The position numbers and the translations under genes were made by a program. Below the pieces are notes generated by a model. The model searched no databases. It was not told the origin of the DNA and saw only the letters and a list, made by a program, of their open reading frames with translations. From Minisyncoccota bacterium (lineage in GTDB: Bacteria > Patescibacteriota > Minisyncoccia > UBA6257 > 1-14-0-10-44-23), in assembly GCA_041389085.1 (NCBI GenBank), contig JAWKSL010000001.1, forward strand, positions 102,765 through 166,764: a stretch of 64,000 nt of DNA, written 5' to 3'. Below are positions 6,896-63,178 of this stretch, piece after piece (the stretch's first letter is position 1; each line of letters starts with the position of its first letter).

Positions 6896-6930
6896 ATAGC
6901 CTTAGGATATCAGAAATGACTGAGCCGCAC

Positions 6931-7458
6931 CTATACGGGGTGCGGCTCTGCGAGTTCGCGCTTTTTGGGCGCTTTGATGGGGCTACTTGGCCCCTTTACT
7001 ACCGTGACAGTGAACTTCCACTCGGGAAGCAACCCTCCTGGTGGGTGTTGCGGCATCAGGCTCGGAGGCCTGTCTTCATCGTCGTCGCGATCATCGTCTT
7101 CGTTACTACCCCCAGCCTCCATATAGGAGATGCCGAGGATGCTAGCGATGATAAAGAGTGGCAGCGTAAAGCACTTTGGCCCGAGATTGAAGATAGCTGC
7201 AAAGACTAGGTTGTCCTTGTTTTTGATGGGGCCGATGTGCCCGGCAACAAGCATGTGCACTACCACCATCATCACGGAGGCGATCATGGCGACAGCAGCA
7301 ATCATGAAAGACCGTTGGCTGATGCGGTTGTCCTGCTGCCTGATGCTGCGGGAATGGTGGTGCAGCACCCAACGCACAGGCGCCATCATGATCGCGGAGG
7401 CGACCGTGAGAGCGCACACTACTGCAAAGAGTACCTTGCTTTGGTGATTGCGCTTCAT
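6931..7458 (-). CDS. hypothetical membrane protein (GC-rich island A)
   Basis: ORF with AGGAGG 8 nt upstream of ATG; several TM segments; acidic C-term. Confidence 0.45.
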   Translation of the reverse strand: MKRNHQSKVLFAVVCALTVASAIMMAPVRWVLHHHSRSIRQQDNRISQRSFMIAAVAMIASVMMVVVHMLVAGHIGPIKNKDNLVFAAIFNLGPKCFTLPLFIIASILGISYMEAGGSNEDDDRDDDEDRPPSLMPQHPPGGLLPEWKFTVTVVKGPSSPIKAPKKRELAEPHPV

Positions 7459-7524
7459 GGTCTTGCTCCTCCTTTTGAGCTTTATCTATTTTAGAAGCCT
7501 CGGTCGATGCCCGTCAAACGCCTA

Positions 7525-7553
7525 TTGACATTTTTATATAAATAGGTTATTGT
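7525..7553 (+). promoter_or_regulatory. sigma70-like promoter TTGACA-17-TATTGT
   Basis: perfect -35 at 7525-7530, -10-like at 7548-7553, upstream of 7611 gene; divergent region also has TTGACG-18-TAAAAT on minus strand. Confidence 0.35.
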
Positions 7554-7610
7554 CTTTACTCACCTTCTGAGCGGGATGTTCTCGCTTCGACCAATTTTTC
7601 CGGAGGGATC

Positions 7611-8051
7611 GTGGGAGAAACTCTGACTGTCACGCGCTTCATCGACGGGGCAAGAGGCATCGCAACGGGAGACCGTTCCCTGCCTGTCCTCTTCACCTTC
7701 GAGGAGCTGACGAGATGGCACTACACGAGTGCTCGCGGCGCTTTCTCAACTGGGCCAGTTCGCGACGACTACTACTTCCCTGAGGTGGGAGAGCAGATCG
7801 AGGTGTACGAGCTCTCTGCCAAGGCTGCTCTTCTTGATGGCACTCGCAAGGCCATCGCTTGGGGCAAGCCAGGAGAGTTCGCCGCGCGTAATGCTTCCGC
7901 AGAAAAGGGTCGCAAGACTCTTGAGCGTAAGCGCCTTGAACATGAGGCGGAAAACCAGCTGCGCCAAGCAGCGCGTGCTGCAAGCCAGCGCAAGCGCCCT
8001 CGAGGCACGCAAAAGGGCTCGCAGCGCCACAAGGCTCGCTGTCGATCCTAG
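7611..8051 (+). CDS. hypothetical protein with Lys/Arg-rich C-terminus (GC-rich island A)
   Basis: GTG start with GGAGG 4 nt upstream; followed by terminator. Confidence 0.45.
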   Translation: MGETLTVTRFIDGARGIATGDRSLPVLFTFEELTRWHYTSARGAFSTGPVRDDYYFPEVGEQIEVYELSAKAALLDGTRKAIAWGKPGEFAARNASAEKGRKTLERKRLEHEAENQLRQAARAASQRKRPRGTQKGSQRHKARCRS

Positions 8052-8077
8052 TGTGGGGTTTATACTCACACACCGCT

Positions 8078-8123
8078 GCGCCCGTGCGTTTCCCAAGTGG
8101 AAATGCACGGGCGTTTGTTTTTT
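8078..8123 (+). terminator. intrinsic terminator
   Basis: gcgcccgtgc...gcacgggcg stem then tttgtttttt. Confidence 0.65.
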
Positions 8124-8149
8124 AGATTATAAGACTCTCTTGATAAGCT

Positions 8150-9920: not shown

Positions 9921-10035
9921 ATTTGTATGTATAGTATCACTTTTTATTCGACGACACACTTTGACTTTTCTTTCTCTTTATCGCACAATGGCTTTCTGTG
10001 CCTAAAGGTGGCACAGATGACACGGGAGGCAATTC

Positions 10036-10410
10036 ATGACAGCGCTTCAGTCGAACTGCGTCAGCGGCATGCTCCACTCGCGAGGATGGTGGGTTGCGAA
10101 GATGAATGGCAACACCATCCTTCTTCGCGTCGTGCCCAACACGCGCGGAGAGGTGGCCAAGCGGCACTCGATCGGCTTCGATCGCGAAGATCGACATGAC
10201 CTGGTCGCCTGTGGTGCCTATTGCACCAGTGGGCTGGTGACGGAACGTGAGGCCATCAACAAGTTGGTGAGCAAGCTCGTCCGGGACAGGGTCAGTCTGA
10301 CCTTGAGCGACCTCTCCTTCGAGGACTTCTCGGGCGCAGCTCTGTTCGCGCACGACCACAGCATGCCCGCGGAGGTCATCGAAGCCTTGCGCAGTCGCGC
10401 AGTGGCCTGA
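10036..10410 (+). CDS. hypothetical protein (GC-rich island B)
   Basis: GGGAGG 6 nt upstream of ATG; TTGACT -35-like at 9961; terminator follows. Confidence 0.45.
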   Translation: MTALQSNCVSGMLHSRGWWVAKMNGNTILLRVVPNTRGEVAKRHSIGFDREDRHDLVACGAYCTSGLVTEREAINKLVSKLVRDRVSLTLSDLSFEDFSGAALFAHDHSMPAEVIEALRSRAVA

Positions 10411-10433
10411 GCAACGCGACACAACACGCAAGA

Positions 10434-10470
10434 GAGCCGGTACCCTTCGGGGTAGCGGCTCCTCTTTTTT
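10434..10470 (+). terminator. intrinsic terminator (shared by convergent Kef gene)
   Basis: gagccggtacccttcggggtagcggctc + ctctttttt. Confidence 0.65.
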
Positions 10471-12172
10471 AATTAATAGCTTTTTCCAGTCGCGCTTCTA
10501 TGTTTTTTATATGCTTTTCTTTGAGCGCGCTCAGCTCTGAACTGTCTTTGTGAAACTGCCGCACTATGTGGCGACCATACTTTGCACTTATCGCATGCGG
10601 TATGAGTACGTAGTCTGCGCCCTTTTCGTATAAATGCTTTGCTTGAGCGAGCGTGTCAGCTACGAGCACAACAAATATTTTTTTATCTAGCTCTTTTACA
10701 TAGCGGAGTAAAAGAAGGTTTGCTTCTTTGCTCGGGATGGTGGAGATAACTATGTTTGCCTCGTCGAGTCCAAGCTCTGCAAGAAACTCTACGTCTTCCA
10801 TGTCGCCGTAGCGGTTTTTTATCCCTTGCTGGTTTAGGTTTGCCACCTCCTTTGGGTTGAAATCTACAACGAGCAATTCTTTTTCAAGCCTCTTCACTCC
10901 GCGCGCTATTTCTGAACCCATGCGGCCGTGACCGAAGATAACAACTTCGGCTGCTTTGTCTTTCCGCCGCTTCTCTGTTTTCTTTTTTGAGCGCCAGTCG
11001 AAGAAGCGGAGGTAGTTTTCTAGGTATGGATAAATCTTGTGTGCGTAGAGAATGAAATAGGTAGAGCCTGCGATAGTAAAGAGTCCTACGAGCGTAATGA
11101 TAGAAACTACTTCTTGGTTTATGTGCCCTACGCTTAGTCCAAGCCCAGCAAGGATAAGAGAAAATTCACTGATTTGCGCAACGGTGAGTCCGGCAAAGAA
11201 ACTTGGGCGCTTTCTGTAGCCAAGAAGAGTCATAAGGATAAAGACGATGAGCGGGTTTCCGATGAGTACGAAGAGTGAAAGAATTATCGCTGGCACCATG
11301 AGCGCACCGATACTTTCGATAACCATCTGCGATCCAAGGAATACGAAAAAGAGTACGAGAAAAAAGTCGCGGAGCGGTTTGAGGCGAGAGCTCATTTCGT
11401 ATGCAAACGGAGCGATAGACATAAGTACTCCGGCAAGAAGTGCCCCTATCTCTATCGAAAAGCCGATGAGGTAAAACACTGTAGCGATACTAAGCCCCCA
11501 TGCGAGTGTGCTGAGAAACAGAAGCTCTTGAGAAGAAGCAAAGAAGTTTCCGAAGCGTGGCAGCACAAAACGCACGAGAAGATAAAGGGCAAAACAAACA
11601 ACCAAGAGCTTACCCATGAGCAAAAGCAGCGTACCTGCAACTCCTTCGCCTGCGCTTGCGCTGATGGCTGATACGACTACAAGAATGAGCGTAGCGATTA
11701 TGTCTTGGATAAGTAGGAACCCGATGGAAATTTTCCCGTAAAGCTTGTGTAAGTCTCCCCTGTCGGAAAGGAGCTTGAGGATTATGATGGTAGAGCTAAA
11801 AGTAAGCGCTATCGCGATATATATAGAAGGTGTTGTCGCGAAGCCGAGGGCTCGGGCTATCGCGTAGCCGATAGCTGAAGTGAAAAGCACCTGCCCGGTA
11901 CCCGCTATTAGAGAAACTTTTCCTACTTCTTTTATAACTTCGGGGCTCAGGTGCACTCCAACGATGAAGAGCAAAATAGCTATTCCAACTTTTGAAAATA
12001 CTTCAAAGGCTTCATGCGACTGGAGAATGTTTAGAAAGTAAGGCCCGGCGAGAATACCGGCGAGAATGTAGCCAACTACAAGCGGCTGCTTAAACAGGCG
12101 CATAATAACGGCGAAGACTGCGGCAACTATCAGTACTGCTGTAAGTTCTACGAATATTGTCATTCGCTTCAT
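10469..12172 (-). CDS. Kef-type K+/H+ antiporter with C-terminal RCK (TrkA-N) domain
   Basis: multi-TM CPA2 core; Rossmann motif VIFGHGRMGSEIA; start set at MKRMTIF (12172), the ORF-track extension runs into a GC-rich island. Confidence 0.8.
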   Translation of the reverse strand: MKRMTIFVELTAVLIVAAVFAVIMRLFKQPLVVGYILAGILAGPYFLNILQSHEAFEVFSKVGIAILLFIVGVHLSPEVIKEVGKVSLIAGTGQVLFTSAIGYAIARALGFATTPSIYIAIALTFSSTIIILKLLSDRGDLHKLYGKISIGFLLIQDIIATLILVVVSAISASAGEGVAGTLLLLMGKLLVVCFALYLLVRFVLPRFGNFFASSQELLFLSTLAWGLSIATVFYLIGFSIEIGALLAGVLMSIAPFAYEMSSRLKPLRDFFLVLFFVFLGSQMVIESIGALMVPAIILSLFVLIGNPLIVFILMTLLGYRKRPSFFAGLTVAQISEFSLILAGLGLSVGHINQEVVSIITLVGLFTIAGSTYFILYAHKIYPYLENYLRFFDWRSKKKTEKRRKDKAAEVVIFGHGRMGSEIARGVKRLEKELLVVDFNPKEVANLNQQGIKNRYGDMEDVEFLAELGLDEANIVISTIPSKEANLLLLRYVKELDKKIFVVLVADTLAQAKHLYEKGADYVLIPHAISAKYGRHIVRQFHKDSSELSALKEKHIKNIEARLEKAIN

Positions 12173-12189
12173 TATAGCAAAACGGCGCG

Positions 12190-12435
12190 TCATCTCTGAT
12201 CGCACCGCTTGATGGTGAGCGAGGAGCCACGGTCTCTTATTTGCGCTCGCCTTCCAGCGGCGCTCCAAAGAGCAGTCTCCTCGTCGTCGGTTATCTTGCG
12301 CACCGTATCGCCATCCAACACCTTCCCCGTAAGTTCAGGGTTTGGGTCGTGTGGGTTTTTGAGCGCGATGACCGCTTCGGCAAACAGGTAGTACTGTCGC
12401 CCGTACATTGTCTTGACCTGGAAGCGGGGCTTCAT
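12190..12435 (-). CDS. small hypothetical protein (island C), translationally coupled to upstream gene
   Basis: ATGA overlap with stop of 12432..12647. Confidence 0.4.
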   Translation of the reverse strand: MKPRFQVKTMYGRQYYLFAEAVIALKNPHDPNPELTGKVLDGDTVRKITDDEETALWSAAGRRAQIRDRGSSLTIKRCDQR

Positions 12436-12647
12436 CGGGGCTCGCGCGGAACCTTCACCTTGAAGGTTCTCCCGTCCGGGCCCTTGTACACAGCCCAATC
12501 ATGGCTGGGCCGCTCAGGTGCATCGACCCTGGTGTCTACCAGGGGCCAGTGGACTGTGTATAGCTTGGTCGCCTTGGCGATGATGCTCTCGTCCCTCTCT
12601 TCCTTTATGCCCTCCAGCTCGCCCCATGCAAGTCGGTAGTGTGACAT
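12432..12647 (-). CDS. small hypothetical protein (island C)
   Basis: AAGGAGG 4 nt upstream of ATG. Confidence 0.45.
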   Translation of the reverse strand: MSHYRLAWGELEGIKEERDESIIAKATKLYTVHWPLVDTRVDAPERPSHDWAVYKGPDGRTFKVKVPREPR

Positions 12648-12673
12648 GTTCCTCCTTTCGTGAGGATTTATTT

Positions 12674-12701
12674 AAAATACTGATTTTTACAGATTTGTCA
12701 A
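12674..12701 (-). promoter_or_regulatory. promoter-like TTGACA-16-TATTTT for 12647 gene
   Basis: minus-strand TTGACA (12696-12701) and -10-like (12674-12679). Confidence 0.3.
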
Positions 12702-12740
12702 ATATAGAAAGAGCGACCACGGCCTTGCGGCGTATGGTCG

Positions 12741-12938
12741 CTACTCGCTGATCAGGATTGGTACAGTGTACCGCTCCTTTTGAGGAGTCTTGAAAATCCT
12801 CAGGCGCTCGGTCAACCCTACTCCTGTCTTGGTGATGACCATCATCCTTCTACCAAGCGCTTCGATGCCTACCTGCTTGTCGCACGGCAAGACGTGTCGA
12901 GCTTCGCGCATGGGCAGCTGTTCGATGTTTTTCTTCAC
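12741..12938 (-). CDS. small hypothetical protein (island C)
   Basis: GTG start with GGAGG upstream; hairpin terminator 12710-12740. Confidence 0.35.
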   Translation of the reverse strand: MKKNIEQLPMREARHVLPCDKQVGIEALGRRMMVITKTGVGLTERLRIFKTPQKERYTVPILISE

Positions 12939-13040
12939 AGCACCTCCACTTATATTTTCTAACTATTTTCCATCTTGTCAATTTTGACTTCGATACGAAA
13001 TTTGCTCATGCTTAGTGTAGTTCCTGACTGGAGGTGACGT

Positions 13041-13835
13041 TTGAGAAAGATCCTCGCCATTTTCCTTTTCGCATTTGTTGGCTGCAAGGCTGCAATGCGC
13101 CCTACTGCGACGCGCGGTGACGCGCTTGCAGAGCTCAATCAGTACACGCTTCAGAGCATCGTGAACTTGCAACAGTTCATCGATACTCGTGTGCTGCTTC
13201 AGTGCTACATGAACACCTATCAGGTGGTTTGCAAGGCCACTGATGGCGAACACGGCGGCTCTGGCGTTCTCTTCGTTTCTCGCGGGAAGTACTATGTGCT
13301 CACCGCTTCACACGTCGTGATGACCGAGCCGGATACCATCGCTTCTCTTCGCAGTCGACTTGGTGAGCCGGCAGTGCTCAATACTGCTACCAAGGTGCGC
13401 GGCACCATCACCGTCCACGACTACGCAGGCACCGAACTCTCTGCAAAGCTGGTTTACTGGCTGCGGCAGTTCGACCTTGCTCTGCTTCTCGTAGACGAGC
13501 CTGCGAAAGTTCGCTCTGAAACTGTCTGCCAGCTCACTATCGAAAACCCCGCCCTCAACGACCGGCTTTTCCTCTGTGGGCGACTCTGGAAGAATGGAGC
13601 CTTGGTGCGCGAAGCGCGTGTACACAAGCACAAGCCTCGCGTCACCATGAGCAGCAGCTTCCTGGCGCTCAACTTCATTGAGGTCAATGAGCGCATCATC
13701 CCTGGGTTTTCAGGCGGGCCCGTATTCACATCGGAGGGGCGTCTTGCCGGCATTGTCTGCTCCACAGACAACCTGCACGCCTACTTCACCCACCCGACCA
13801 GCATCGTAGCCCTCCTCGAGAAGTTCGATGTCTAG
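13041..13835 (+). CDS. trypsin-like serine protease lipoprotein (S1 family)
   Basis: lipobox LFAFVGC; His motif LTASHVV; Ser motif PGFSGGPVF (GDSGGP-like); TTG start with GGAGG. Confidence 0.6.
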   Translation: MRKILAIFLFAFVGCKAAMRPTATRGDALAELNQYTLQSIVNLQQFIDTRVLLQCYMNTYQVVCKATDGEHGGSGVLFVSRGKYYVLTASHVVMTEPDTIASLRSRLGEPAVLNTATKVRGTITVHDYAGTELSAKLVYWLRQFDLALLLVDEPAKVRSETVCQLTIENPALNDRLFLCGRLWKNGALVREARVHKHKPRVTMSSSFLALNFIEVNERIIPGFSGGPVFTSEGRLAGIVCSTDNLHAYFTHPTSIVALLEKFDV

Positions 13836-13844
13836 CTCGAGCTA

Positions 13845-13884
13845 GGCCCGGCAGCGAAAGTTGCCGGGCCTAAAGTCTTTTTAT
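13845..13884 (+). terminator. intrinsic terminator
   Basis: ggcccggcagcgaaagttgccgggcc + t-run. Confidence 0.65.
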
Positions 13885-13914
13885 TGATTGTTTTTGAAAA
13901 ATTTTGTACTGTTT

Positions 13915-14090
13915 GTGAGCTGAGCTTGGCTTTGGGTATGTGGTGCATGGGAACCCCCGCGCAGAGGCTTTGCCCCCGTACCACTCACCCTAGTCGATGG
14001 GCCCCATCCCGCAGGCTTGGGAACGTGAGTTGCCAAGCTCAGCCTTCGCACAGGCTCGCTCTTTAACCGGAGCGAGCCTGAACCATTTCT
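13915..14090 (+). ncRNA. candidate structured RNA element (unclassified)
   Basis: 12 bp perfect long-range stem gctgagcttggc/gccaagctcagc closing ~100 nt, plus hairpin ggctcgctc/gagcgagcc; no supported ORF. Confidence 0.2.
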
Positions 14091-14167
14091 ATCCTTGCTT
14101 TTCGCCTGCCTTTTTCATATTGTTTCTATAGAAACTTCACAACGGTCCATAACCCGAGGAGGGTGCA

Positions 14168-14761
14168 ATGCTTTACTCAGCTAAGGCTGTGGTTTTCGTA
14201 CTCGGGCTCCTAGCTCTCACTATCGCCACGTTTATCTGGTCGACCTCTCGCCTCGTTCAGCAACATCGTGACGTCTACGATGATGTCGCTCAGGAATCTG
14301 ATAGGCTATGCGCCGAACAACGAGCAATTCTCGTGGCCGCAATCCAAGCCAGCGCACCTTCCCCGGAGAAAGTCGCCGGGTTCGCCCGCAACGTTGATAC
14401 GGTGCATCGTAGAGAGCGTCAGCGGAGTAACAGCCTTGCTGCCAACTTCATCCGCTTCTACGCTAGCAACGATCCGTACAGTGTGTCTCTTGGATGGTCC
14501 AGCAAGATCTTCAAAGAAGAGCTTAAAGCTCTTCAGCTCTACAGCGAAAGCCCGCGTGCTTCTATCTTGACCAATCGCTACTTCGAAGACGAATCCTCCG
14601 AAACGGGTTGGTCTTTGGAATTCACCGAGTGGCATGACGGGCGCCTCAAAGCCGAGATGTTCAGCTTTCAAGGCGAGGCTCGAGTATTCCCTAGCCTTTC
14701 GGCCTTCGAGGCTCGCTTCGGCTCGCTCGAGTACTTGCTTGCTCGTAGTGTGCCAGAATGA
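14168..14761 (+). CDS. membrane-anchored hypothetical protein (island C)
   Basis: N-terminal TM helix; GGAGG 5 nt upstream. Confidence 0.5.
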   Translation: MLYSAKAVVFVLGLLALTIATFIWSTSRLVQQHRDVYDDVAQESDRLCAEQRAILVAAIQASAPSPEKVAGFARNVDTVHRRERQRSNSLAANFIRFYASNDPYSVSLGWSSKIFKEELKALQLYSESPRASILTNRYFEDESSETGWSLEFTEWHDGRLKAEMFSFQGEARVFPSLSAFEARFGSLEYLLARSVPE

Positions 14762-14772
14762 GCACCATCGCA

Positions 14773-14815
14773 AACAGCGCGCGTCCTTCGGGATTCGCGC
14801 TGTTGCTGTTTTTAA
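14773..14815 (+). terminator. intrinsic terminator
   Basis: aacagcgcgcg...cgcgctgtt stem + gctgttttt. Confidence 0.65.
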
Positions 14816-15366: not shown

Positions 15367-15426
15367 ACCTTAACTATATCAAAAATGTTTGCGGCGCCCT
15401 TTGTTTGGGGCGCCGCGCGCTGTGTC

Positions 15427-15639
15427 TCAGTCGAAGGTCTCGGCTGAGTGTGGAATGCCTCCCGGGAAGATTTTACCCACCTCCTTCTGCCGGGCCTTTT
15501 CTTGCGCCTCCCTGATCTTTTTGTGCTCTCTCCAGAGCGGACAGAGAGCCGCTTGCCCGGGTGTGTAGGGCATGATTGCACCACAAGTCTCGCAGTGCTT
15601 GGCGTGTGTTCCGGGCATTCGCGCCTCCTTGGGTTGCAC
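15427..15639 (-). CDS. small zinc-ribbon-like protein (island D)
   Basis: CETCG ... C pattern; hairpin terminator 15393-15418. Confidence 0.35.
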   Translation of the reverse strand: MQPKEARMPGTHAKHCETCGAIMPYTPGQAALCPLWREHKKIREAQEKARQKEVGKIFPGGIPHSAETFD

Positions 15640-15723
15640 GAAATCGTGCTCTTTTAGCCTACCCTACACTCCTCCCAAAAATCAAACAGCCCTGCACCGA
15701 ACGTGGTGCAGGGCTGCGCTGGG

Positions 15724-16467
15724 CTAGCGGATGAGGCTGTTGTACTGAAGCACGTGGGCCACCATCGCTGAGAGCTGGCTTACGCCGTGTTCGTTGGGGT
15801 GAACGCCGTCGAGCCAGAGGGTTGAGCCCAAGTTGAAGCGCTTGCCGGCGAGCTTTTGACACCCGCCCCTGCTCGCAGCTATCGCGGAAGAGCTCATCGG
15901 GAAGTAGAAGACTCTTCCGGCGCGCTCCTTGCAGGTTTCTCTAACCTTGGCGTTGAAGCTATCTAGTTGGGCCTGCGTCGGGAACGTGACGCCGTAGAGC
16001 TTGAGCGCGGTGCTATCGGTCAAGTCAGGCACGTCGCCAAGGAGCACGGGGCAGTCGAAGTTTCGCGCAAACGACAAGCCTTGCTCGAAGCGCTCACCTC
16101 GCTCCTCGACTGGCCCGCGGTAGGCAAACCAGAAGAGAAAGTCGGTGGCAACGACCAGTGTAGGGTTGAGCGCCTTGGCAGAGCGGATCTGACTGTCGGC
16201 ACTTTCCACGAGCCTCTCGCTCATCTTGGCATCGGCGAAGTTGAAGACCTGGCAGTCTGGGCCCTGCAGGATCTTCTTCAGGTAGTGGTCGAGGGCTGGG
16301 GCCCACACGCCGCCTGCAGAAGAGCTTGCGCCGATGATGACGATGCGCTGCGTGGTACTGACCATGCAGGGCTCTACCGGCTCCTCCCTTCCTCCCGTAG
16401 ACAAGCAGCTCAGTAGGAGGGGCGCCATCAGAATGCAGAGGAGAAGTTTTCTAACCATGGGACGCAC
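15724..16467 (-). CDS. SGNH/GDSL hydrolase family lipoprotein
   Basis: lipobox LLLSCLS; block I IIGASSS; block V DGVHPN. Confidence 0.75.
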   Translation of the reverse strand: MRPMVRKLLLCILMAPLLLSCLSTGGREEPVEPCMVSTTQRIVIIGASSSAGGVWAPALDHYLKKILQGPDCQVFNFADAKMSERLVESADSQIRSAKALNPTLVVATDFLFWFAYRGPVEERGERFEQGLSFARNFDCPVLLGDVPDLTDSTALKLYGVTFPTQAQLDSFNAKVRETCKERAGRVFYFPMSSSAIAASRGGCQKLAGKRFNLGSTLWLDGVHPNEHGVSQLSAMVAHVLQYNSLIR

Positions 16468-16595
16468 CTCCGTTTTCTATCTCTTCACCATGAAGAGTTC
16501 TATATTTAGTTTACTCCTATCTAACAAATTCTCTAAATTTTACTTATCGGCTTTTATAAAATAGACTGACTCTACCATCGTTGAAAGGAGCAACC

Positions 16596-16844
16596 ATGCC
16601 TTGCGACCATAAGCCTAACTGCGATCAGGCCTTTTGCATGGAGTGCGGCAAAAAAAACCCCTCCTTCAATCGGGATGTGCACGGAGAATACGAGAAGTTT
16701 GTTGATATGCACTGCCTTCTCGGACACCCCTTCGCTGCGAAATTCGCCCTGGAAATGCAAAGGTGTGGCGAGGAGCCGCCGAACTTCTGCCCCGAATGTG
16801 GAGCAGCACTGACCGAGCAGTCACCGCAAGAGCCACTCAAATGA
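16596..16844 (+). CDS. small double zinc-ribbon protein, paralog 1
   Basis: AAAGGAG upstream; CMECGKKNP and CPECG motifs. Confidence 0.55.
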   Translation: MPCDHKPNCDQAFCMECGKKNPSFNRDVHGEYEKFVDMHCLLGHPFAAKFALEMQRCGEEPPNFCPECGAALTEQSPQEPLK

Positions 16845-16862
16845 GTGGCTCTGTTCTTTTTC
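16833..16862 (+). terminator. intrinsic terminator
   Basis: gagccactc-aaat-gagtggctc + t-run; stop codon in loop. Confidence 0.6.
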
Positions 16863-16919
16863 TTTACATATTTATTTCAATAGAATAGTATGGGCTCGTT
16901 AGTACTGGAGATACGACTA

Positions 16920-17156: not shown

Positions 17157-17164
17157 CAGGAAAC

Positions 17165-17197
17165 GCGAGAGCCACTCTGAGGAGTGGCTCTGTTTTT
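17165..17197 (+). terminator. intrinsic terminator (bidirectional)
   Basis: gagccactc-tgag-gagtggctc, same 9 bp stem as 16833 copy. Confidence 0.6.
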
Positions 17198-19518: not shown

Positions 19519-19523
19519 CGAGA

Positions 19524-25223: not shown

Positions 25224-25244
25224 GAAAGCTTTTTGTTATTTTCT

Positions 25245-53356: not shown

Positions 53357-53678
53357 TGCTCCGCGCAGGGATCGAACCTGCGACATCTTCGTTACGCTTT
53401 ACCTACTATTACTAGTAGTGCGGACTATATCATCGTCTTTCTATTTCTAGCGAAGACGCAAGGCGCTTCCCGTTGTTACGTAGCATGCTACGTAACAGCC
53501 GAGTACTCCCTTTTCGGGATAGTCTCTGAACCTTCCTACCCAAGGGCCAAGGCTTGGCTGCTGATTGCCCAGCCTAGACTGGGTTTCCAGCAATTCACCT
53601 TGTTTTTCAATCTGCATTTCTGCGAACCTGCGACATCTTCGTTAACAGCGAAGCGTTCTACCACTGAACTACCGCGGA
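53357..53678 (-). tRNA. tRNA-Asn(GUU) gene interrupted by group I intron
   Basis: minus strand: UCCGCGG-UA-GUUCAGUGGUAGAAC-G-CUUCG-CUGUUAA-CGAAG-AUGUC-GCAGG-UUCGAUC-CCUGC-GCGGAGC-A when exons joined (near-identical D/anticodon arms to E. coli tRNA-Asn); acceptor pairing imperfect in hand fold. Confidence 0.55.
53394..53644 (-). ncRNA. group I intron (approximate bounds)
   Basis: R element GGUUCAGAGACUA (53515-53532) and S element GAUGAUAUAGUCC (53421-53433) forming P7; P9-like hairpin CUACUAGUAAUAGUAG; terminal G; 22 nt direct repeat at 53372-53393 and 53623-53644. Confidence 0.65.
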
Positions 53679-53706: not shown

Positions 53707-55170
53707 TTAGCTCAATAGCTCCTTTATTACCTCCTGAAGGGCAGCAGGGTTTGCTCTTCCCTTGAGCTCTGCCATAGACTTTCCAACGAAAAACATAAGG
53801 AGCTTGTCGTTCCCGCCTTTGTACTTTTCTACTGCGTCTTGGTTTTCTTCCATCACCTTTTGAACTGCTTGTGCGAGGGTTTGCGGGTCGGAAATTTGCT
53901 CAAGGCCCTCTGACTTCACTATTTCTCGAGGGTCTCCCCCATTCTCATACATTTTTGCAAGCACGTCTTTTGCTGCTCTACTGTTTATCGTTTCTTTTTC
54001 TACAAGTACGATAAGGTCGGCAAAGTTTTCTGCTGTTATCTTGCTTTTGTGTGGATCGGAAATTCCGTCTTGGATAAGAAGGCCCTTAAAGTCACTGGTA
54101 AGGTAGTTATAAGCAAGCTGCGCTGCGCGCACTTGGTCGTTTACTTCTTCTGTTTTTAGCTCAGATACTGCTTCTTCAAAAAAGGCAGCGATTGGACGCT
54201 CAAGCGTAAGCAAGCCTGCTTGTTCTGCGTTTAGGCCAAACTCTTTCTGTAGTCTTTCTCTCTTCTCCCATGGGAGCTCAGGCATTTCTTCCTTAAGCCG
54301 ATTGAAATCAAACTGAGCGATGTTTATCGGTGGAAGATCTGGCTCTGGGAAGTAGCGGTAGTCGGCACTTGTTTCCTTTATGCGCTGACTTACTGTTTGC
54401 TTATTTATATCGTCCCAGCCGCGAGTTTCTTGTACTACCTTTTCCCCTTCCTCAAGCACCTTTGTTTGGCGCTCTATTTCGTAGCGGGCTGCTGCTTCTG
54501 CCATCTTGAAGCTGGCTATGTTTTTAACCTCTACTTTTGTACCGAATTTAAGCTCACCATCTTCCATAGTTCCAAGGCTGAGGTTTACCTCTACACGCAT
54601 CTGGCCTTTTTCAATGTCTGCATCGGCTACGCCAAGATAGCGAAGAAGGAGCTGGAGCTCGCGTGCGAACTCTCCTATTTTTTCTGGAGACTTTATGCAT
54701 GGCTCGGTAACGAGCTCCATAAGAGGCACTCCTGCTCGGTTAAAGTCTACAAGCGTTATTTTCTCCCCTGCCTCGTTTGCTCCATGGGTAAGCTTCCCAG
54801 TGTCTTCTTCTAAGTGCACTCGAGTGATTTTTACTCCTGCAAGAAGCCCACCGAATACAAACGGTATGTCGTACTGGCTTATCTGATAGCCCTTTGGCAG
54901 GTCTGGGTAGAAGTAGTTTTTTCTATCGAACTTTGAAACTGCAGGAATTTCTCCGCCAATGGCGGTACCAATCTTAAGCATAGACTCGATAGCCTTCTGA
55001 TTCATGACCGGAAGGGCTCCTGGCTGCCCGGTGCAAACTGGACAGATGTGCTTATTTGGCTCGGTTTCGTCTGGATCGTTTAAACACGCGCAGAACATTT
55101 TTGTGCGCGTGTTGAGCTCGGCGTGAATTTCTAGCCCGATAACTGGTATGTACTTAGGACTATTTGTCAT
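53707..55170 (-). CDS. gatB: Asp-tRNA(Asn)/Glu-tRNA(Gln) amidotransferase subunit B
   Basis: YIPVIGLEIHAELNTRTKMFCAC N-terminus and GatB core. Confidence 0.9.
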   Translation of the reverse strand: MTNSPKYIPVIGLEIHAELNTRTKMFCACLNDPDETEPNKHICPVCTGQPGALPVMNQKAIESMLKIGTAIGGEIPAVSKFDRKNYFYPDLPKGYQISQYDIPFVFGGLLAGVKITRVHLEEDTGKLTHGANEAGEKITLVDFNRAGVPLMELVTEPCIKSPEKIGEFARELQLLLRYLGVADADIEKGQMRVEVNLSLGTMEDGELKFGTKVEVKNIASFKMAEAAARYEIERQTKVLEEGEKVVQETRGWDDINKQTVSQRIKETSADYRYFPEPDLPPINIAQFDFNRLKEEMPELPWEKRERLQKEFGLNAEQAGLLTLERPIAAFFEEAVSELKTEEVNDQVRAAQLAYNYLTSDFKGLLIQDGISDPHKSKITAENFADLIVLVEKETINSRAAKDVLAKMYENGGDPREIVKSEGLEQISDPQTLAQAVQKVMEENQDAVEKYKGGNDKLLMFFVGKSMAELKGRANPAALQEVIKELLS

Positions 55171-55195
55171 TTGTTTACTTTATCTTTTTAGTAAG

Positions 55196-55415
55196 TATAA
55201 TGGCACTAGCGGTTCGATGATGCAATAAGCGGTTTCTTGCCGAACCTAGCCCTTGTCGCGGAGTACAGCTGTGCGAAACTTTCTTTGTCGCATCTTCGGC
55301 ATCTGCCGAGACTGTCAGCAGAACAGCCATTGCGGTGGCTGCACCTGCTGCCGGACCTGACCGTCCGATCAACTCTCCCGTGCTATCAACTCGTATAGCG
55401 CGGGAGCTCTTTTTT
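55196..55415 (+). ncRNA. candidate ~200 nt noncoding transcript antisense to gatB leader
   Basis: TATAAT at 55196-55201 with TTTACT 16 nt upstream; terminator ctcccgtgc..gcgcgggag + tcttttttt at 55376-55415; no RBS-supported + ORF; strong internal hairpins. Confidence 0.25.
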
Positions 55416-55929: not shown

Positions 55930-55964
55930 ATGCAGAGGATAGCGCAGGGGCCTAAAAAGTGAAA

Positions 55965-55993
55965 GGCGCCGGCACACATGGTGTGACGGCGCC
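55965..55993 (-). repeat. palindromic repeat copy 1 (ggcgccggcacacatggtgtgacggcgcc)
   Basis: three near-identical copies with aaaagt(c/g)aaa flank. Confidence 0.75.
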
Positions 55994-56004
55994 CTCGCTG
56001 GCCC

Positions 56005-56334
56005 CTAGAGGGGCTCGTCTGACCTGCGCACGAAGACAAGCAGGTCGACCTCCTTGTCTGCTCCTTCGACCTCGATGACGTCGTAGAGTCGGTGCACCTC
56101 ATTGGTCTTCTGCGGAATCCTCTCGAAAGCATCGATGAATTTCTGATCGATCTTGCAGTCTTCGAAAATCCTCTCTTCGTCGTTCATCGCGACGAAGATC
56201 TGGACAGCATCGAGGAAGCTATCCCTCGTATCCTCGAACCGCCTCCCTGAGACGGCGTAGTTGAGGTTGAGAGCGACCGCGCTCCACAGCCCATCTTCAT
56301 CGGGACAAATCAGGACCCTTACTTCTCTTTGCAT
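56005..56334 (-). CDS. HicB-like/DUF1902-like small protein (island J)
   Basis: LICPDEDGLWSAVALNLNYAVSG...DSFLDAV pattern resembles HicB N-domain; paralog of 56759..57085. Confidence 0.4.
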   Translation of the reverse strand: MQREVRVLICPDEDGLWSAVALNLNYAVSGRRFEDTRDSFLDAVQIFVAMNDEERIFEDCKIDQKFIDAFERIPQKTNEVHRLYDVIEVEGADKEVDLLVFVRRSDEPL

Positions 56335-56398
56335 TCTAATCCTCTCTTTTGCGACGAAGGGTCCTTACAGGCTAGGCTTTTGACTAAAAAAAGTCAAA

Positions 56399-56427
56399 GG
56401 CGCCGACACACATGGTGTGCCGGCGCC
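56399..56427 (-). repeat. palindromic repeat copy 2
   Basis: ggcgccgacacacatggtgtgccggcgcc. Confidence 0.75.
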
Positions 56428-56452
56428 CTATGAGTTTGTTAGCTTGAGCACG

Positions 56453-56668
56453 CTAGCTCTGACGGCCGAGGAAGGCAGCCTTGCTGAGGTTCGCCTGCAG
56501 CCCCTGCAGGACCCTGCGCTCGTGCATCTCTTCGCGCCGCATCTTGTCTTGGTAGACCTCGATGTAGCGATCGCACTCGCCCTTCGTGCCACAGAACACT
56601 TGGAGCCCTGCCCTCATGACTCGGTGGTACCTCTTGTCCTTTTTGATGCAGAGGAACTCGATCCGCAT
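56453..56668 (-). CDS. small hypothetical protein (island J)
   Basis: ORF between repeat copies. Confidence 0.3.
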   Translation of the reverse strand: MRIEFLCIKKDKRYHRVMRAGLQVFCGTKGECDRYIEVYQDKMRREEMHERRVLQGLQANLSKAAFLGRQS

Positions 56669-56722
56669 GCCACGTCTCCTTTCTACTTTCTAGACTAGCC
56701 TATGCTATTTATAAAAGTCAAA

Positions 56723-56751
56723 GGCGCCGGCACACATGGTGTGACGGCGCC
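56723..56751 (-). repeat. palindromic repeat copy 3
   Basis: identical to copy 1. Confidence 0.75.
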
Positions 56752-56758
56752 CTGATTG

Positions 56759-57085
56759 CTAGGCGGCGATGATGGGGACGCAGTTGATCGCGAAGACGTA
56801 GGGGGTGCCCTTCAACGTCTCGTAGCGCGCGATACCGCGCATAAGTCCGTTGAATTGCCTGGCACACCTGAGTACCTCCTTGGCCTTGTCGCGAGTACTA
56901 GGCCTGGCCTCCAAGTCCTCCCCTTCAACAAGGCGCCGCCCGACTTCTGCGATGAACGCGTCGATCGCCTCCTTGGTGTCTGCCCCTTTTGCGCGCAGAG
57001 TGCTGCCCGTGATCCCTTGCACAGCCCAACTCCCGTCTTCCTGACAGAAAAGCAGGGCTGCAACCTCTTTCTTTTCTTTATTCAT
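56759..57085 (-). CDS. HicB-like/DUF1902-like small protein (island J)
   Basis: LLFCQEDGSWAVQGITGSTLRAKGADTKEAIDAFIAEV. Confidence 0.4.
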   Translation of the reverse strand: MNKEKKEVAALLFCQEDGSWAVQGITGSTLRAKGADTKEAIDAFIAEVGRRLVEGEDLEARPSTRDKAKEVLRCARQFNGLMRGIARYETLKGTPYVFAINCVPIIAA

Positions 57086-57186
57086 GATTCACCTCCTCTA
57101 CCAGCCTAAACTTAGGAGGCGGGTATGTCAAAAATGTTTACGCCCCCGAGTCCTTGCGGAATCGGGGGCGCGTATTGCGTTGAGCG

Positions 57187-57732
57187 CTAGCTCGGGATCG
57201 GATCGGGATAGGCCTGCGGTTCTTCGAACCCGCAAACCGGACAATCCCTCTTGCCGCACCTGCAGCTGGGCCCTCCCACCTTGATGGTAGGGTAGCAGTC
57301 TTCGACAAGGTCGGTGGGCCTACTCCTGACGTCGATCATTTGCATGCGTGCTTCCATGAGCTCGCCAGCCGAAAGATCGACCTCTCCGATATGTATGCCC
57401 AGCTCCTCGCTGCAGCCCTTGGGGGCGAACTCCTTGAGCACCTTGCCGGCAAGCACACTAGCGCTTCGCGGGAAGAGCAAGATCTTCCCCTCCATCGTGA
57501 CTAGCACGATGACGTATCGACCCTTCTCTAGAAAGTCCTTCCCCCGCGATACGTCTGCGCCTCGAAGAGTTGAAGGCGCATGCCCCCTCTCTCCAGGCAC
57601 TAGGCACCAAGCGCCTACGTACCTTGCAGGAATCTTGTCGGCAAAGGTGCTGCTACCGCGAGATGAATGGGTGATGTCGATTGCACCTGCGGGGATGAGC
57701 TTCCGAAGCCACTGACGCTTTGAAATGGGCAT
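57187..57732 (-). CDS. hypothetical protein with C-terminal zinc ribbon (island J)
   Basis: CRCGKRDCPVCG; hairpin cgcccccga/tcgggggcg at 57125-57160. Confidence 0.4.
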   Translation of the reverse strand: MPISKRQWLRKLIPAGAIDITHSSRGSSTFADKIPARYVGAWCLVPGERGHAPSTLRGADVSRGKDFLEKGRYVIVLVTMEGKILLFPRSASVLAGKVLKEFAPKGCSEELGIHIGEVDLSAGELMEARMQMIDVRSRPTDLVEDCYPTIKVGGPSCRCGKRDCPVCGFEEPQAYPDPIPS

Positions 57733-57898
57733 GTGCCCTCCTGGTCTGGAACGCGGGGTTTTAGCCCGCTTAGCAGATTTTTAAGCTGGAACGCAGAGGC
57801 ACACGCCATCTGCTTAGCAGCTCAGGTTCTAATATAATTATCGCATATTTTACCTATTTTGTCAATATCTCCTTTTTTGACTGCTTTTGCGGCGTACA

Positions 57899-57930
57899 AA
57901 AAAGAGCCCTTTTGGGCTCTCTTTAATATT
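57899..57930 (-). terminator. intrinsic terminator after rplK
   Basis: aaaaaagagcccttttgggctctc hairpin with flanking A/T runs. Confidence 0.65.
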
Positions 57931-61144: not shown

Positions 61145-61287
61145 AATGTAAAAAAGGCACAAATCGCCTTTGTTTAAAGCTATTTTAGCCCAAATTGCCC
61201 TATAAATCAATTGCCATACCAAGCTCAAAATGCCATACTTTTTTAGCGTTCCTGCATAGTGTGGGAGGCATGGGCTAAGGAGGTCTC

Positions 61288-61680
61288 TTGAACACCATCG
61301 GCAATTTCTGCATTAGGGCGAGCATCTTGATGCGGGTCGTCACCGAAGGCAGGACCTATTCGCTCAGGGCAGCGTTCCCCGAGAAGGGTTACAGCAGGGG
61401 TGAGAAGAGGATGGCAATTGGCTTCCTCAAGCGCTTGCGCTCCATGCAGAGAGCTCGCGATCTGCACGGCACGTACAGCGGAGCTGGTGCTGCCATTCCC
61501 TGCCAAGTACTTCGCCACTCTGGTGAGCGTCTACGCGGCACGCTCTGCTGGACCAAGCAGGTGGTTGGGAGTGCTCGACTCGCCCTGCGTCTTGACCCCA
61601 ACCCTCTCTACGCCAATGATTTCTTCTCCCCCGCTGTTTTTAACCATGGGAAAGAAGATGCACTTCTGGTCTTGGTCTAG
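61288..61680 (+). CDS. hypothetical protein (island K)
   Basis: TTG start with AAGGAGG 4 nt upstream; hairpin at 61690-61735. Confidence 0.35.
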   Translation: MNTIGNFCIRASILMRVVTEGRTYSLRAAFPEKGYSRGEKRMAIGFLKRLRSMQRARDLHGTYSGAGAAIPCQVLRHSGERLRGTLCWTKQVVGSARLALRLDPNPLYANDFFSPAVFNHGKEDALLVLV

Positions 61681-61732
61681 CCTCAGGGTCGGAAGACGAA
61701 TTCGCCGCTTTCTCTTCGGAGGGGGCGGCGAT

Positions 61733-63178
61733 TTACTTTATAGAAAAGTCGTTGGCGTTGTTGTCTGTGTCTTGTAGGCGCTCAAGTCTTTTGTTTGCTC
61801 CTGGGTTTTCTGGATATGGCGCCGTTTCTGCAAAAATATTTTCTGCGCTTCCCCACGCGACTGAGTCGGTTATCTGGCCCGTATCTTGATCGCCAAAGCG
61901 AATCGCTACTCCGTTGTCATTTGAAATCGATGCTGAAGTGCGCGTGTCTGCTTGTACGTCAGTGTAGTTTGAGTTCGCCCACATGTACGTCTCCCCCGGC
62001 TGTAAAAATACATCTTCAGTGAACGATTTAATCGAGCTGTCGGTAGAGCCTGTCTTTGTTCGCTTTACGAGCCGGTAGCCATTTAGGTTCACTTCTTCAT
62101 CGGAGTCGTTTTTAATAACAATGAGGTCGTTTGTTGTGAGCCCTTGGCCGCCAGTTATTTGCACTGATTGGATAATGAGCCTTTTTGCCTCTTGCTGCAT
62201 CTCGGGCTTTTCTTCTGGCTCTTCTGTTTCTATAACGACCGCTTCTTCGTCTTCAAAGATTCCTAATTTTGCGTCTTCCTCGCTTTGCTCTGCTTGTTGA
62301 TTTTCTTTATCTTGGGAATTGTTTGTTTTCTTAACTACTATCTCTATTGGGTTATTTTTTGCTGGGCTTCCTCCTGTCTGATGACTACTGTACCAACTTA
62401 AGTCTGGCGCTCTTTGAGCTGTAAGCCTTTTCGCTGAATTTCCTGCTGGCCAATTTGGCGCCGCTAAAACTTCGTCTTGTAAGCGGCAGCTTTCATCAAA
62501 GAGCCTTAGCCCCTCATCTGTATTTGCTAAGGCGCCTGTATACAGCGGAGCTTCTATTTTGGTTAATACGCGCTCCCCTCTCTTTACTAAATAAAGTGCT
62601 GCCTCTGGCAAAAGCACTCCGTCGGTAATGGTTATTTTTATCTGCTCGGCTTTATCGATGATTGCCCAGCCGGAAATATCTTTTTCTTTATCGGAAATGT
62701 TTTTGAGCTCTATCCATTCGTTGTTCGAACTATCTTTATCGCCAGCCCAATTTACTTCGTTAAAAATAACCGTTGATTGGTCGGGTAGAAAGTCGGTAGT
62801 AAATTCGCACTCGGTGTCTTCACTCTTTACCCTTTTTGTAGACTTACTCTCTGCAAGAATTTCTTTTCTTACTTTTGGTTGCGAGCTGTCTACAAAAACT
62901 CCCGGTACCTCCTCTTTGCTTTTCGTGGCTACTCCTTGGTAAGCGACAGGAGAAGAAACACCGAGGACTTTTTCTTCTGGCAAAACTGCTACCGGTAAAA
63001 CTTCTTGCTGTGTATACGCCTCTCTTGTAGTGGCTAGGAGCTCAAACTGTTCCTCTTTTTGAAACGCCCCAGCAACTTTTGAAAACGCAGCATCTACAAC
63101 CGTGGAGAGGCTCGAGCCCACAAAAGCTCCGAGTGCGATAAGTAAAAATGCCTGCTTGTTTTCTTTTAAAAAGGTCAA
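61733..63178 (-). CDS. secreted protein with two lamin-tail (LTD) domains
   Basis: signal/TM; NEVNWAGDKDSSNNEWIELKN LTD motif twice. Confidence 0.6.
   Translation of the reverse strand: MTFLKENKQAFLLIALGAFVGSSLSTVVDAAFSKVAGAFQKEEQFELLATTREAYTQQEVLPVAVLPEEKVLGVSSPVAYQGVATKSKEEVPGVFVDSSQPKVRKEILAESKSTKRVKSEDTECEFTTDFLPDQSTVIFNEVNWAGDKDSSNNEWIELKNISDKEKDISGWAIIDKAEQIKITITDGVLLPEAALYLVKRGERVLTKIEAPLYTGALANTDEGLRLFDESCRLQDEVLAAPNWPAGNSAKRLTAQRAPDLSWYSSHQTGGSPAKNNPIEIVVKKTNNSQDKENQQAEQSEEDAKLGIFEDEEAVVIETEEPEEKPEMQQEAKRLIIQSVQITGGQGLTTNDLIVIKNDSDEEVNLNGYRLVKRTKTGSTDSSIKSFTEDVFLQPGETYMWANSNYTDVQADTRTSASISNDNGVAIRFGDQDTGQITDSVAWGSAENIFAETAPYPENPGANKRLERLQDTDNNANDFSIK

Follow-up and report, generated by a model that had tools for sequence, protein, structure and literature searches.

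The 64-kb stretch of DNA analyzed here, referred to below as the window, is an unremarkable piece of the chromosome of a candidate phyla radiation (CPR)/Patescibacteria bacterium, the proteins of which carry R3B52_ locus tags ("Candidatus Paceibacterota" metagenome-assembled genome, MAG, at NCBI), and it is interrupted by 13 short GC-rich islands. These islands are probably horizontally acquired, autonomous cassettes that resemble the morons of phages, occupy intergenic slots of a chromosome largely devoid of Shine-Dalgarno (SD) sequences, and turn over beside terminator hairpins. The mean GC content of the window is 46.9%. Its backbone encodes, among others, Obg, VKOR, DinB, a KefB-like antiporter, an AddA-like helicase, UvrC, UvrA, UvrB, UppS, UppP, NDH-2, GatB, GyrB, and an extracytoplasmic function (ECF) sigma factor, and 50 of the 57 backbone genes lie on the minus strand. 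A phage identity of the window was considered and rejected: the backbone is that of a cell, and a megablast search of phage sequences returned nothing.

The islands were delimited by unsupervised segmentation with a two-state hidden Markov model (HMM) on per-base GC, without gene information. This yielded 13 high-GC segments with a total length of 12,345 bp (19% of the window) and a GC content of 57.6%, versus 44.4% for the rest. In order, segments 1 to 13 lie at 6766-8113, 10007-10462, 12183-12636, 13080-14800, 15391-16426, 18640-20357, 28694-29087, 30742-31868, 35298-36472, 38581-38816, 41032-41398, 55942-57769, and 61246-61730. GC-rich islands had been proposed in a first-pass annotation of the sequence, 13 segments of which coincide with those of the HMM; its three other segments proved marginal (24690-25235, 50.0% GC; 55170-55410, 51.5%; 16560-17200, 52.6%). 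The islands measure 0.24 to 1.8 kb, and most of their edges lie 2 to 36 bp from the ends of neighboring backbone genes, so that, over-long open reading frame (ORF) starts discounted, they fill intergenic slots and disrupt no backbone gene. The over-long starts include those of the KefB-like gene (10469-12268) and uvrC (29584-31041), both on the minus strand, where the TTG codons that open the longest ORFs run into the neighboring GC-rich islands. Both N-terminal extensions are probably spurious, since domain positions and relatives place the starts near 12172 and ~30843, respectively.

In the likely coding frames, GC at the first, second, and third codon positions was 0.60, 0.44, and 0.69 in the islands versus 0.54, 0.35, and 0.46 in the backbone. 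The GC excess thus lies mainly at synonymous sites and constitutes a DNA-level signature. The GC-normalized dinucleotide distance between pooled islands and backbone was 97, versus 21 ± 7 (maximum, 45) in a size-matched backbone null, and the distance between odd- and even-numbered islands was just 25, as for two samples from one genome. All 13 islands carry one common, non-host signature, and since it is common to all cassettes, their source would be a single external GC-rich gene pool.

The two classes of genes also differed in their expression signals. The median SD:anti-SD duplex energy was -10.3 kcal/mol for 21 island genes and -0.7 kcal/mol for 57 backbone genes, and an SD of -8 kcal/mol or stronger preceded 71% of island versus 3.5% of backbone genes (P = 3e-7). 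When any start codon within the first 40 codons was allowed in both classes, strong SDs were found for 86% of island and 9% of backbone genes (P = 1e-9). The earlier observation that island ORFs are SD led, with many backbone genes SD-less, was therefore strongly borne out. A match of at least 10/12 to TTGACA-N16-18-TATAAT was found upstream of 29% of island versus 4% of backbone genes. TTGACA boxes stand at 7525(+), 12701(-), 12981(-), 28638(+), and 31920(-), largely as first reported, except that the box at 9961 reads TTGACT; two more stand at 38852(-) and 57865(-). Altogether the window has 16 TTGACA sites, 11 of them inside islands or at island edges; in the backbone the motif is depleted (11 observed versus 22 expected), and 6 of these 11 are island-edge promoters. 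Island -10 boxes often read TAGNCT, and the predicted leaders of ~20 to 120 nucleotides (nt) are preceded by -35-driven promoters. The first-pass description of these promoters as host-like did not hold, as many backbone genes have a -10 box near the start codon and, on inspection, weak -35 elements. Terminators detected under strict settings (hairpin energy of at most -12 kcal/mol, followed by a T-tail) followed 62% of island versus 13% of backbone genes, and several more island terminators were recognized by other inspection; a strong hairpin thus ends most island genes but not, as had been stated for every island, each one. Island terminators have GC stems of 12 to 16 bp, and those of the backbone consist of a short GC stem between an A tract and a T tract. 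Taken together, these signals suggest that the cassettes are autonomous transcription units, each with a predicted promoter and terminator.

In 17 of 53 backbone genes, a TANNNT (-10) box ends 4 to 9 nt upstream of the start codon, versus 6% at random positions. Since these boxes stand so close to the start codon and an SD is lacking, many backbone mRNAs would be leaderless, which suggests that leaderless mRNAs are widespread among the backbone genes of this CPR bacterium. The boxes are TATAAT or TATAGT-like, without an SD, as upstream of the genes at 20587-21531, 17197-17646, 52695-53291, and 26295-27365 (-).

The window was compared with contigs of a related species (L161 to L164, L166, L167, and L170, from SRR23004066-75), which are collinear with it at ~84 to 91% nucleotide identity, with backbone proteins 94 to 96% identical. 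Most islands covered by these contigs occupy the same slots, and islands 2 to 6 and 11 are reproduced with divergence (island 11 is 87.5% identical in L167). Cargo common to both species is under purifying selection and has backbone-like synonymous divergence; it is therefore functional and older than the species split. The first-pass annotation had reasoned that islands with the same boundaries in all relatives would be ancestral. Shared boundaries were found in part, for one related species only, and against them stand insertions or deletions of cassettes, cargo that is hyper-divergent, and, in the more distant relative described below, slots with unrelated cargo or none. The cassette at 14092-14808, comprising a 197-amino-acid (aa) gene and its terminator, is absent from L166, in which the YdeI stop codon directly adjoins the hairpin corresponding to 14051-14080. 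Conversely, L166 holds an extra GC-rich, SD-led cassette exactly at hairpin 15686-15717, with an AlaE-like cargo (Pfam PF06610, 34 bits) that is 28 to 30% identical to enterobacterial AlaE and uninformative on the donor. A 40-nt hairpin plus T-tail stands on both sides of this insert (229-268 and 836-875 of L166) and in a single copy in the window. The loop of the window hairpin (ACGTTC) is the reverse complement of that in the first L166 copy (GAACGT), and the loop of the second copy differs again (CAACGC), which suggests hairpin-mediated strand switching or recombination at this site. A terminator hairpin was present at the junction in two of the three documented gain or loss events. As judged from these alignments, cassettes are gained, lost, and exchanged singly between relatives.

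In three cases the cargo itself was hyper-divergent. The 124-aa gene of island 2 and its counterpart in L166 share ~50% of nucleotides and ~35 to 40% of amino acids (by eye) over the ORF, and the boundaries are 100% (terminator) and ~97% (promoter/SD side) identical. The two proteins of island 6 are 38 to 46% identical over their full length to those in L161 to L164, with 93% identity in the inter-gene spacer and 75 to 83% in the promoter flanks. Such cargo between near-identical edges suggests allele swapping or arms-race evolution. Arrays with repeated hairpin modules occur within the window. Island 9 contains a pair of 41-nt hairpin/-35 modules that are 98% identical (35285-35325 and 35765-35805), and island 12 contains three 41-nt hairpin/TTGACT modules that are 93 to 98% identical (56713-56753, 56389-56429, and 55955-55995). 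Each island 12 unit runs from the hairpin through a TTGAC(A/T) box overlapping the hairpin T-tail, a -10 box, and an AGGAGG-type SD to a small ORF, and the ORFs between these near-identical modules are not recognizably related. The hairpin families of islands 9 and 12 are each confined to their own island.

The nearest species representative, a Candidatus Saccharibacteria MAG (L001), is more distant (UvrA, 73% identical), and gene order from uppP-uppS to uvrB-uvrA-uvrC is conserved between it and the window. The slot of island 11 is empty in L001, where the orthologues of the two flanking genes, UppP and UppS, share 4 nt; in the window they stand apart, with a 430-bp cassette between them. The UvrB/UvrA and UvrA/UvrC slots of L001 hold small genes with elevated GC at third codon positions (GC3) and SDs of -10.8 to -15.5 kcal/mol, in a backbone poor in SDs. 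No similarity was found between the cargo of L001 and that of the window in the same slots, and orthology of these cargos was rejected for want of homology.

Independent Logan assemblies were reached by exact-sequence look-up, with two other runs represented, SRR32608987 and SRR28338161. One contig from SRR32608987 (L168) is 99.97% identical over window positions 42359-39303, and one from SRR28338161 (L169) is 100% identical over 41519-39618; both span UppP, island 11, and UppS, with L169 starting within the island 11 leader. A third contig (L171) is 100% identical over 57912-56988 and covers the junction between AT-rich and GC-rich DNA of island 12. Three backbone junctions of islands 11 and 12 are thus reproduced across these contigs.

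The islands were said at first to encode only small unknown proteins. The median length is indeed ~130 aa and most have no family, with larger products in a trypsin-like protein of 264 aa, an HTH_17 protein of 232 aa, and a protein of 326 aa. The 264-aa lipoprotein matches Trypsin_2 (E = 1.8e-15). Besides it, the HTH_17 protein, and two zinc ribbons, no island protein matched a Pfam, NCBIfam, PHROGs, or PADLOC family; scans with PHROGs and PADLOC gave weak protease and excisionase-like matches alone, the HTH_17 protein being excisionase-like by its weak PHROG match. Three island proteins were queried against 5.8 billion proteins, and all three recovered nothing but themselves, apart from one homologue of the 326-aa protein in Logan; an exhaustive HMMER search with the HTH protein gave domain-level relatives only. 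No homologue of the island ORFs was found in the first 160 loci collected, related CPR contigs included. Island DNA gave no blastn match to phages (islands 3 to 6 and 12) or plasmids (islands 3 to 6), the 326-aa protein gave no tblastn match to plasmids, and viral contigs scanned with two island proteins and two hairpin patterns contained neither. The GC-rich mobile partner suggested by the first-pass annotation therefore fared unevenly: the idea of foreign or mobile DNA is supported, but the phage, plasmid, and viral collections gave no match, and the proposed search of island proteins against phage and plasmid databases, weak protease and excisionase-like matches excepted, revealed no partner. 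Several cargos are lipoproteins, membrane proteins, or very fast-evolving proteins, and such cargos are plausibly host-interaction or conflict genes. The small island proteins were also considered as one paralog family, but their alignment showed no clear family, and a HicB-like N terminus noted by eye in two of them was unsupported by Pfam, NCBIfam, and PDB searches. AlphaFold2 modeled the 247-aa lipoprotein of island 5 with a pLDDT of 43, and its SGNH-like motif (…DGVHPN…) is a by-eye reading only. A metagenome scan with the AddA-like helicase returned distant relatives alone (at most 50% identity), without useful synteny.

The reading that we consider probable is that acquired cassettes would interrupt housekeeping operons, which lie mostly on one strand, have ~44% GC, and are largely SD-less, at intergenic slots. 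Each cassette would run from a -35/-10 promoter, often placed over the T-tail of the preceding hairpin, through a leader with an AGGAGG-type SD and a GC-rich ORF to a GC-stem terminator. Exchange would rely on an enzyme that recombines the conserved boundary modules of hairpin and promoter, either homologously or site specifically. From the duplicated-hairpin junction (n = 1), the arrays of near-identical modules, and the conserved edges around variable cargo, we infer that the hairpins may serve as recombination sites; ordinary homologous recombination between 40-nt repeats, or slippage on them during replication, would suffice, and a dedicated recombinase is only a possibility. The islands are atypical in composition, patchy among relatives, and without orthologues in close lineages, the criteria by which horizontal gene transfer (HGT) is recognized, and, in being ORFans and in evolving as mosaics, they are closer to the "dark matter" of mobile elements than to the core gene set of any bacterium sequenced.

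Several observations weigh against this reading. No donor genome, phage, or plasmid for the islands emerged from the searches described, and the backbone ORFs that were scanned in the 64 kb yielded no gene for an integrase, a transposase, or any other recombinase. Several islands are common to the related species with backbone-like synonymous divergence (dS), so they are not recent and have kept their GC excess. The indel at 14092-14808 has no flanking repeat, so hairpin duplication is not universal, and the single hairpin of the window at 15686-15717 could equally have come from deletion between two repeats. Some neighbors in the arrays may be diverged tandem paralogs and not independent captures. 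The promoters, leaderless starts, and terminators are consensus predictions, and the comparison covers 64 kb of one genome and short contigs of its relatives.

A broader version, which we regard as doubtful, is that a chromosome-wide cassette economy operates in CPR bacteria of this lineage. Terminator hairpins that follow housekeeping genes would then be docking sites for the capture, duplication, swap, and loss of SD-led, -35-driven, GC-rich cassettes, via hairpin-specific recombination by an enzyme encoded elsewhere. Such a system would be akin to a dispersed integron without a common promoter, and its external GC-rich gene pool might be the bacterial host of the symbiont or the mobile elements of that host.

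Alternatively, the island genes could be native, vertically inherited, and fast-evolving lineage-specific genes under another selective or mutational regime (for example, an SD-translated regulon), with no HGT. Their divergence fits this. The trypsin-like gene, compared with L166, has a ratio of nonsynonymous to synonymous divergence (dN/dS) of 0.06 and a dS of 0.70, next to 0.695 for backbone KefB; the other shared cargos have dN/dS values of 0.13 to 0.30, and dS ranges from 0.16 to 1.3 in shared island genes versus 0.3 to 1.05 in the backbone (the UppS row was left out of the dN/dS comparison). The gene at 41067-41378 is even more conserved than its neighbors, L001 slots likewise hold SD-led, GC-elevated small genes, and mobility genes were not found among the ORFs scanned. 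Native origin is nevertheless unlikely, given the common and distinct GC-normalized dinucleotide signature of the islands, the presence or absence of whole cassettes between related species, same-slot cargo without homology to that of L001 (with one slot empty there), and the ORFan status of most cargo among 5.8 billion proteins. We know of no process by which a subset of the short genes in a genome would keep a GC3 that is 23 points higher.

It is also conceivable that a dedicated capture system moves the cassettes as non-autonomous units at terminator-like hairpins by a trans-acting recombinase (such as an integron-integrase-like tyrosine recombinase or an HUH/Y1 enzyme), in the manner of a dispersed integron with cassettes bearing their own promoters. 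The exact 40-nt hairpin/T-tail duplication around the AlaE-like cassette, the hairpin loop inverted between genomes, the dissimilar ORFs arrayed between modules 93 to 98% identical, the conserved edges with hypervariable cargo, and the restriction of each hairpin family to its own island would all fit such a system. We find it distinctly unlikely, however: no recombinase was found in 64 kb, the indel at 14092-14808 lacks a repeat, and the hairpins resemble plain intrinsic terminators, with perfect GC stems and T-tails but, by inspection, without GTTRRRY/RYYYAAC cores. With one island per hairpin family there is no recombination site common to the islands, and RecA-mediated recombination or slippage between 40-nt repeats accounts for the data without a special enzyme.

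If a large integrated element or a few of them (a prophage, an integrative and conjugative element, or a plasmid) had been broken up and scattered by rearrangement and deletion, the remnants would explain the one compositional signature across islands, the excisionase-like HTH_17 protein with its weak PHROG match, the small ORFans, and the moron-like layout. The order of the backbone is, however, collinear with L001 and the related species, which argues for 13 separate intergenic insertions and not for dispersed fragments; the backbone contains no phage genes, structural, replication, and integration genes were not found, and neither were phage, viral, or plasmid matches, all of which makes this origin very unlikely. 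That the islands are an assembly chimera or an engineered construct, both of which the first-pass annotation had entertained in view of their composition, or contamination, as their abrupt compositional switches and textbook promoter, SD, and terminator signals might suggest, is hardly conceivable: identical independent assemblies with backbone junctions exclude a chimera for islands 11 and 12, an engineered origin is ruled out by those assemblies and by natural relatives with diverged versions of the same cassettes in the same slots of a deposited environmental MAG, and the island edges match gene ends without plasmid or vector similarity.

The cassettes can be set beside several known systems. 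Morons were described as "obvious additions" with a GC content unlike that of surrounding genes and with their own promoter and terminator (PMC3594210). Like phage morons (HK97 gene 15 type; Juhala/Hendrix), the islands add DNA between genes that lie next to each other in relatives, as at UppP/UppS, at 14092-14808, and for the AlaE-like cassette; they also share small unknown or accessory genes, a composition that contrasts with the flanks, horizontal spread (probable here), and an independent transcription unit (predicted here). Unlike phage morons, they reside in a cellular chromosome, the backbone of which has no phage matches, they differ from that backbone in translation start (SD led versus SD-less or leaderless), and they form arrays with near-identical hairpin modules between them. 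With integron cassettes and clusters of attC sites lacking integron-integrases (CALINs), they have in common short length, mostly a single and often ORFan ORF, an imperfect-palindrome hairpin at the end, one-at-a-time gain and loss, and arrays of unrelated ORFs with similar hairpins between. However, attC sites are imperfect palindromes of 55 to 140 nt with R''/L''/L'/R' boxes (RYYYAAC ... GTTRRRY), whereas the island hairpins are terminator-like stems of 26 to 37 nt without R/L core boxes, and their flanks, which read TTTGATTTT or TTTGACTTTT, show by inspection no GTTRRRY core. An integron has the tyrosine recombinase IntI next to an attI site and a Pc promoter; the backbone ORFs scanned in the window contain no recombinase domain, and no attI site was found. 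Integron cassettes are, moreover, mostly promoterless, expressed from one upstream promoter that they share, and gathered in one array, whereas nearly every island cassette has its own predicted -35/-10 promoter and SD and the cassettes are dispersed over 13 slots. The cassettes thus share traits with morons and with integron cassettes and fail one defining feature of each. They likewise differ from a classical genomic island, a block of more than ~10 kb with an integrase, often beside a tRNA gene and between att direct repeats: they measure 0.24 to 1.8 kb, no integrase was found among the ORFs scanned, and the single tRNA signal in the window (53.6 kb) lies away from every island edge. In insertion sequences of the IS200/IS605 family, repetitive extragenic palindromes with their associated transposases (REP/RAYT), and class C group II introns, which insert after intrinsic terminators, an extragenic hairpin is a landmark for insertion and hairpin repeats occur at the edges, as in the islands; these elements depend on an HUH transposase or a reverse transcriptase and are not known to carry cargo with a promoter and SD of its own. 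Neither enzyme was found among the ORFs scanned here, in which respect the islands are unlike such hairpin-targeting elements.

For Patescibacteria, horizontally acquired regions that make up as much as 13% of genome length, in large part without a known function, have been reported, comprising conventional islands, single transferred genes, and prophages called by standard tools (PMC12455944). As far as it was read, that study describes no mosaic of 0.25- to 2-kb GC-rich cassettes, no split between SD-led and leaderless genes, and no hairpin-bounded turnover. No description of a fine-grained mosaic of two expression dialects was found in the literature in a search that was not exhaustive.

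The individual islands are built as follows. Island 1 (6896-8149) consists of two divergent cassettes that share an AT-rich promoter region in the middle, and a strong hairpin closes each of them on the outside. The minus-strand gene (6931-7458) encodes a membrane protein of 175 aa (R3B52_00575), with a terminator at 6922-6948(-), and the plus-strand gene (7611-8051) a protein of 146 aa, with a 16-bp-stem terminator at 8078-8114(+); the putative promoters lie at 7488-7517(-) and 7525-7553(+). Island 2 (9960-10468) is a single plus-strand cassette with the 124-aa ORF at 10036-10410, a predicted promoter TTGACT-17-CACAAT at 9961-9989, an SD reading GGGAGG, and a hairpin terminator at ~10436-10462. 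Island 3 with its AT-rich leader occupies 12173-13040 (-) and holds small genes at 12190-12498, 12432-12647, and 12741-12938, all three of which are also called in L166. The second of these, of 71 aa, has the SD AAAGGAGG, and TTGACA promoters are predicted at 12701-12674(-) and 12981-12954(-).

Island 4 falls into three plus-strand parts. The first (4a, 13041-13872) is the cassette of the trypsin-like serine protease lipoprotein (264 aa; 246 aa in the NCBI call), with a terminator at 13843-13872. The second (4b, 13886-14090) is a candidate structured-RNA unit with a promoter-like TTGATT-17-TACTGT and the terminal hairpin at 14051-14080. Its minimum free energy is -88.9 kcal/mol (z = -5.0), and the spacer around it (13836-14091) is 95.7% identical to that of L166, versus ~86% for the flanking genes, topping every neighboring gene. 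No Rfam match was found for this candidate RNA, and the 11 substitutions that separate it from L166 say nothing on pairing in a covariation test. The third part (4c, 14092-14808) is the cassette of the 197-aa gene (ORF 14168-14761), with an SD reading GAGGAGG and a terminator at ~14772-14800.

Island 5 (15391-16470, minus strand) encodes a 70-aa protein (15427-15639), with a terminator at 15391-15416(-), and the 247-aa lipoprotein (R3B52_00640, an ORFan; 15724-16467), followed by the terminator hairpin at 15686-15717(-). Next to it lies the marginal island of 52.6% GC, in which zinc-ribbon paralogs of 87 and 88 aa are encoded on the plus strand at 16581-16844 and 16890-17156 (GC3, 0.61 and 0.73). 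A 111-nt 3' region is duplicated between them, terminators included (16581-17216), and the pair possibly represents an older tandem cassette duplication that is partly ameliorated. Island 6 (18434-20406) is a convergent two-gene module with the 326-aa protein (R3B52_00665) at 18538-19518 (+), its terminator at 19522-19553, and the HTH_17 protein at 19621-20319 (-). At its outer edge stands a perfect 34-nt palindrome, GCTCTATATTATGCTCTAGAGCATAATATAGAGC (18424-18457), the part of which that reaches the L161 contig end is 100% conserved.

Island 7 (28638-29087) is on the plus strand, with a TTGACA promoter predicted at 28638-28666(+), a 16-bp-stem terminator at 29029-29064(+), and a GC-rich ORF of uncertain frame, for which 28659-29027 (+) is the best candidate. 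Island 8 (30850-31920, minus strand), between UvrA and UvrC, has a 12/12 promoter, TTGACA-18-TATAAT with a TG, at 31920-31891(-) and encodes a 179-aa membrane protein (31227-31766) and a 77-aa protein (30911-31144). Island 9, between UvrB and the methyltransferase/UvrA, spans 35285-36561 (-) with genes at 36064-36516, 35816-36079, and 35339-35746. Island 10 (38581-38852, minus strand) holds a 57-aa ORF (38617-38790) with the SD AAAGGAGGGG and a TTGACA promoter predicted at 38852-38824(-).

The single cassette of island 11 (41021-41450, minus strand), between UppP and UppS, consists of a leader, the 103-aa ORF (R3B52_00775; 41067-41378), and a hairpin at ~41029-41052. Island 12 (55955-57900, minus strand) is the array of four cassettes, with genes at 57187-57732 (181 aa), 56759-57085 (108 aa), 56453-56668 (71 aa), and 56005-56334 (109 aa) and a predicted promoter TTGACA-17-GATAAT at 57865-57837(-). 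Island 13 (61229-61732, plus strand), between GyrB and a lamin-tail-domain protein, is a single cassette with the SD TAAGGAGG, a 130-aa ORF at 61288-61680, and a 13-bp GC-stem terminator at ~61690-61730. Beyond the left edge of the window, a 2-kb block of 57% GC in L170 (3159-5156) lies over the gene of a 665-aa FG-GAP repeat protein; GC-rich islands therefore exist outside the window and can hold large genes.

Two other features of the backbone were observed. At 53402-53678 (-), a tRNA match (RF00005, 38 bits) coincides in part with a group I intron (RF00028, 81.6 bits); ARAGORN called no tRNA anywhere in the window, in keeping with a tRNA gene that is split by an intron at this position. A gene pair for the ECF sigma factor (Sigma70_r2/r4) and a DUF5667 protein lies at 38829-40332 (-), between UvrB and UppS, with a backbone-like GC content, and tblastn found no counterpart of the pair at that position in L001.

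The genomes of CPR/Patescibacteria are tiny and streamlined, the bacteria are thought to depend on host cells, and how they gain and renew their accessory functions is poorly understood. If the probable reading given above is correct, ~19% of this housekeeping region would consist of self-contained foreign cassettes with non-resident expression signals, turning over gene by gene. Acquired DNA can then be clearly GC richer than the genome that receives it, a fact that limits its possible sources. Should the pattern be general, GC3 together with an SD in an SD-less genome would provide a signature for the accessory genome of uncultured symbionts, the mosaic would be a natural case of two gene-expression "dialects" in one cell, and it would offer a lead on terminator hairpins as recombination sites for gene capture.

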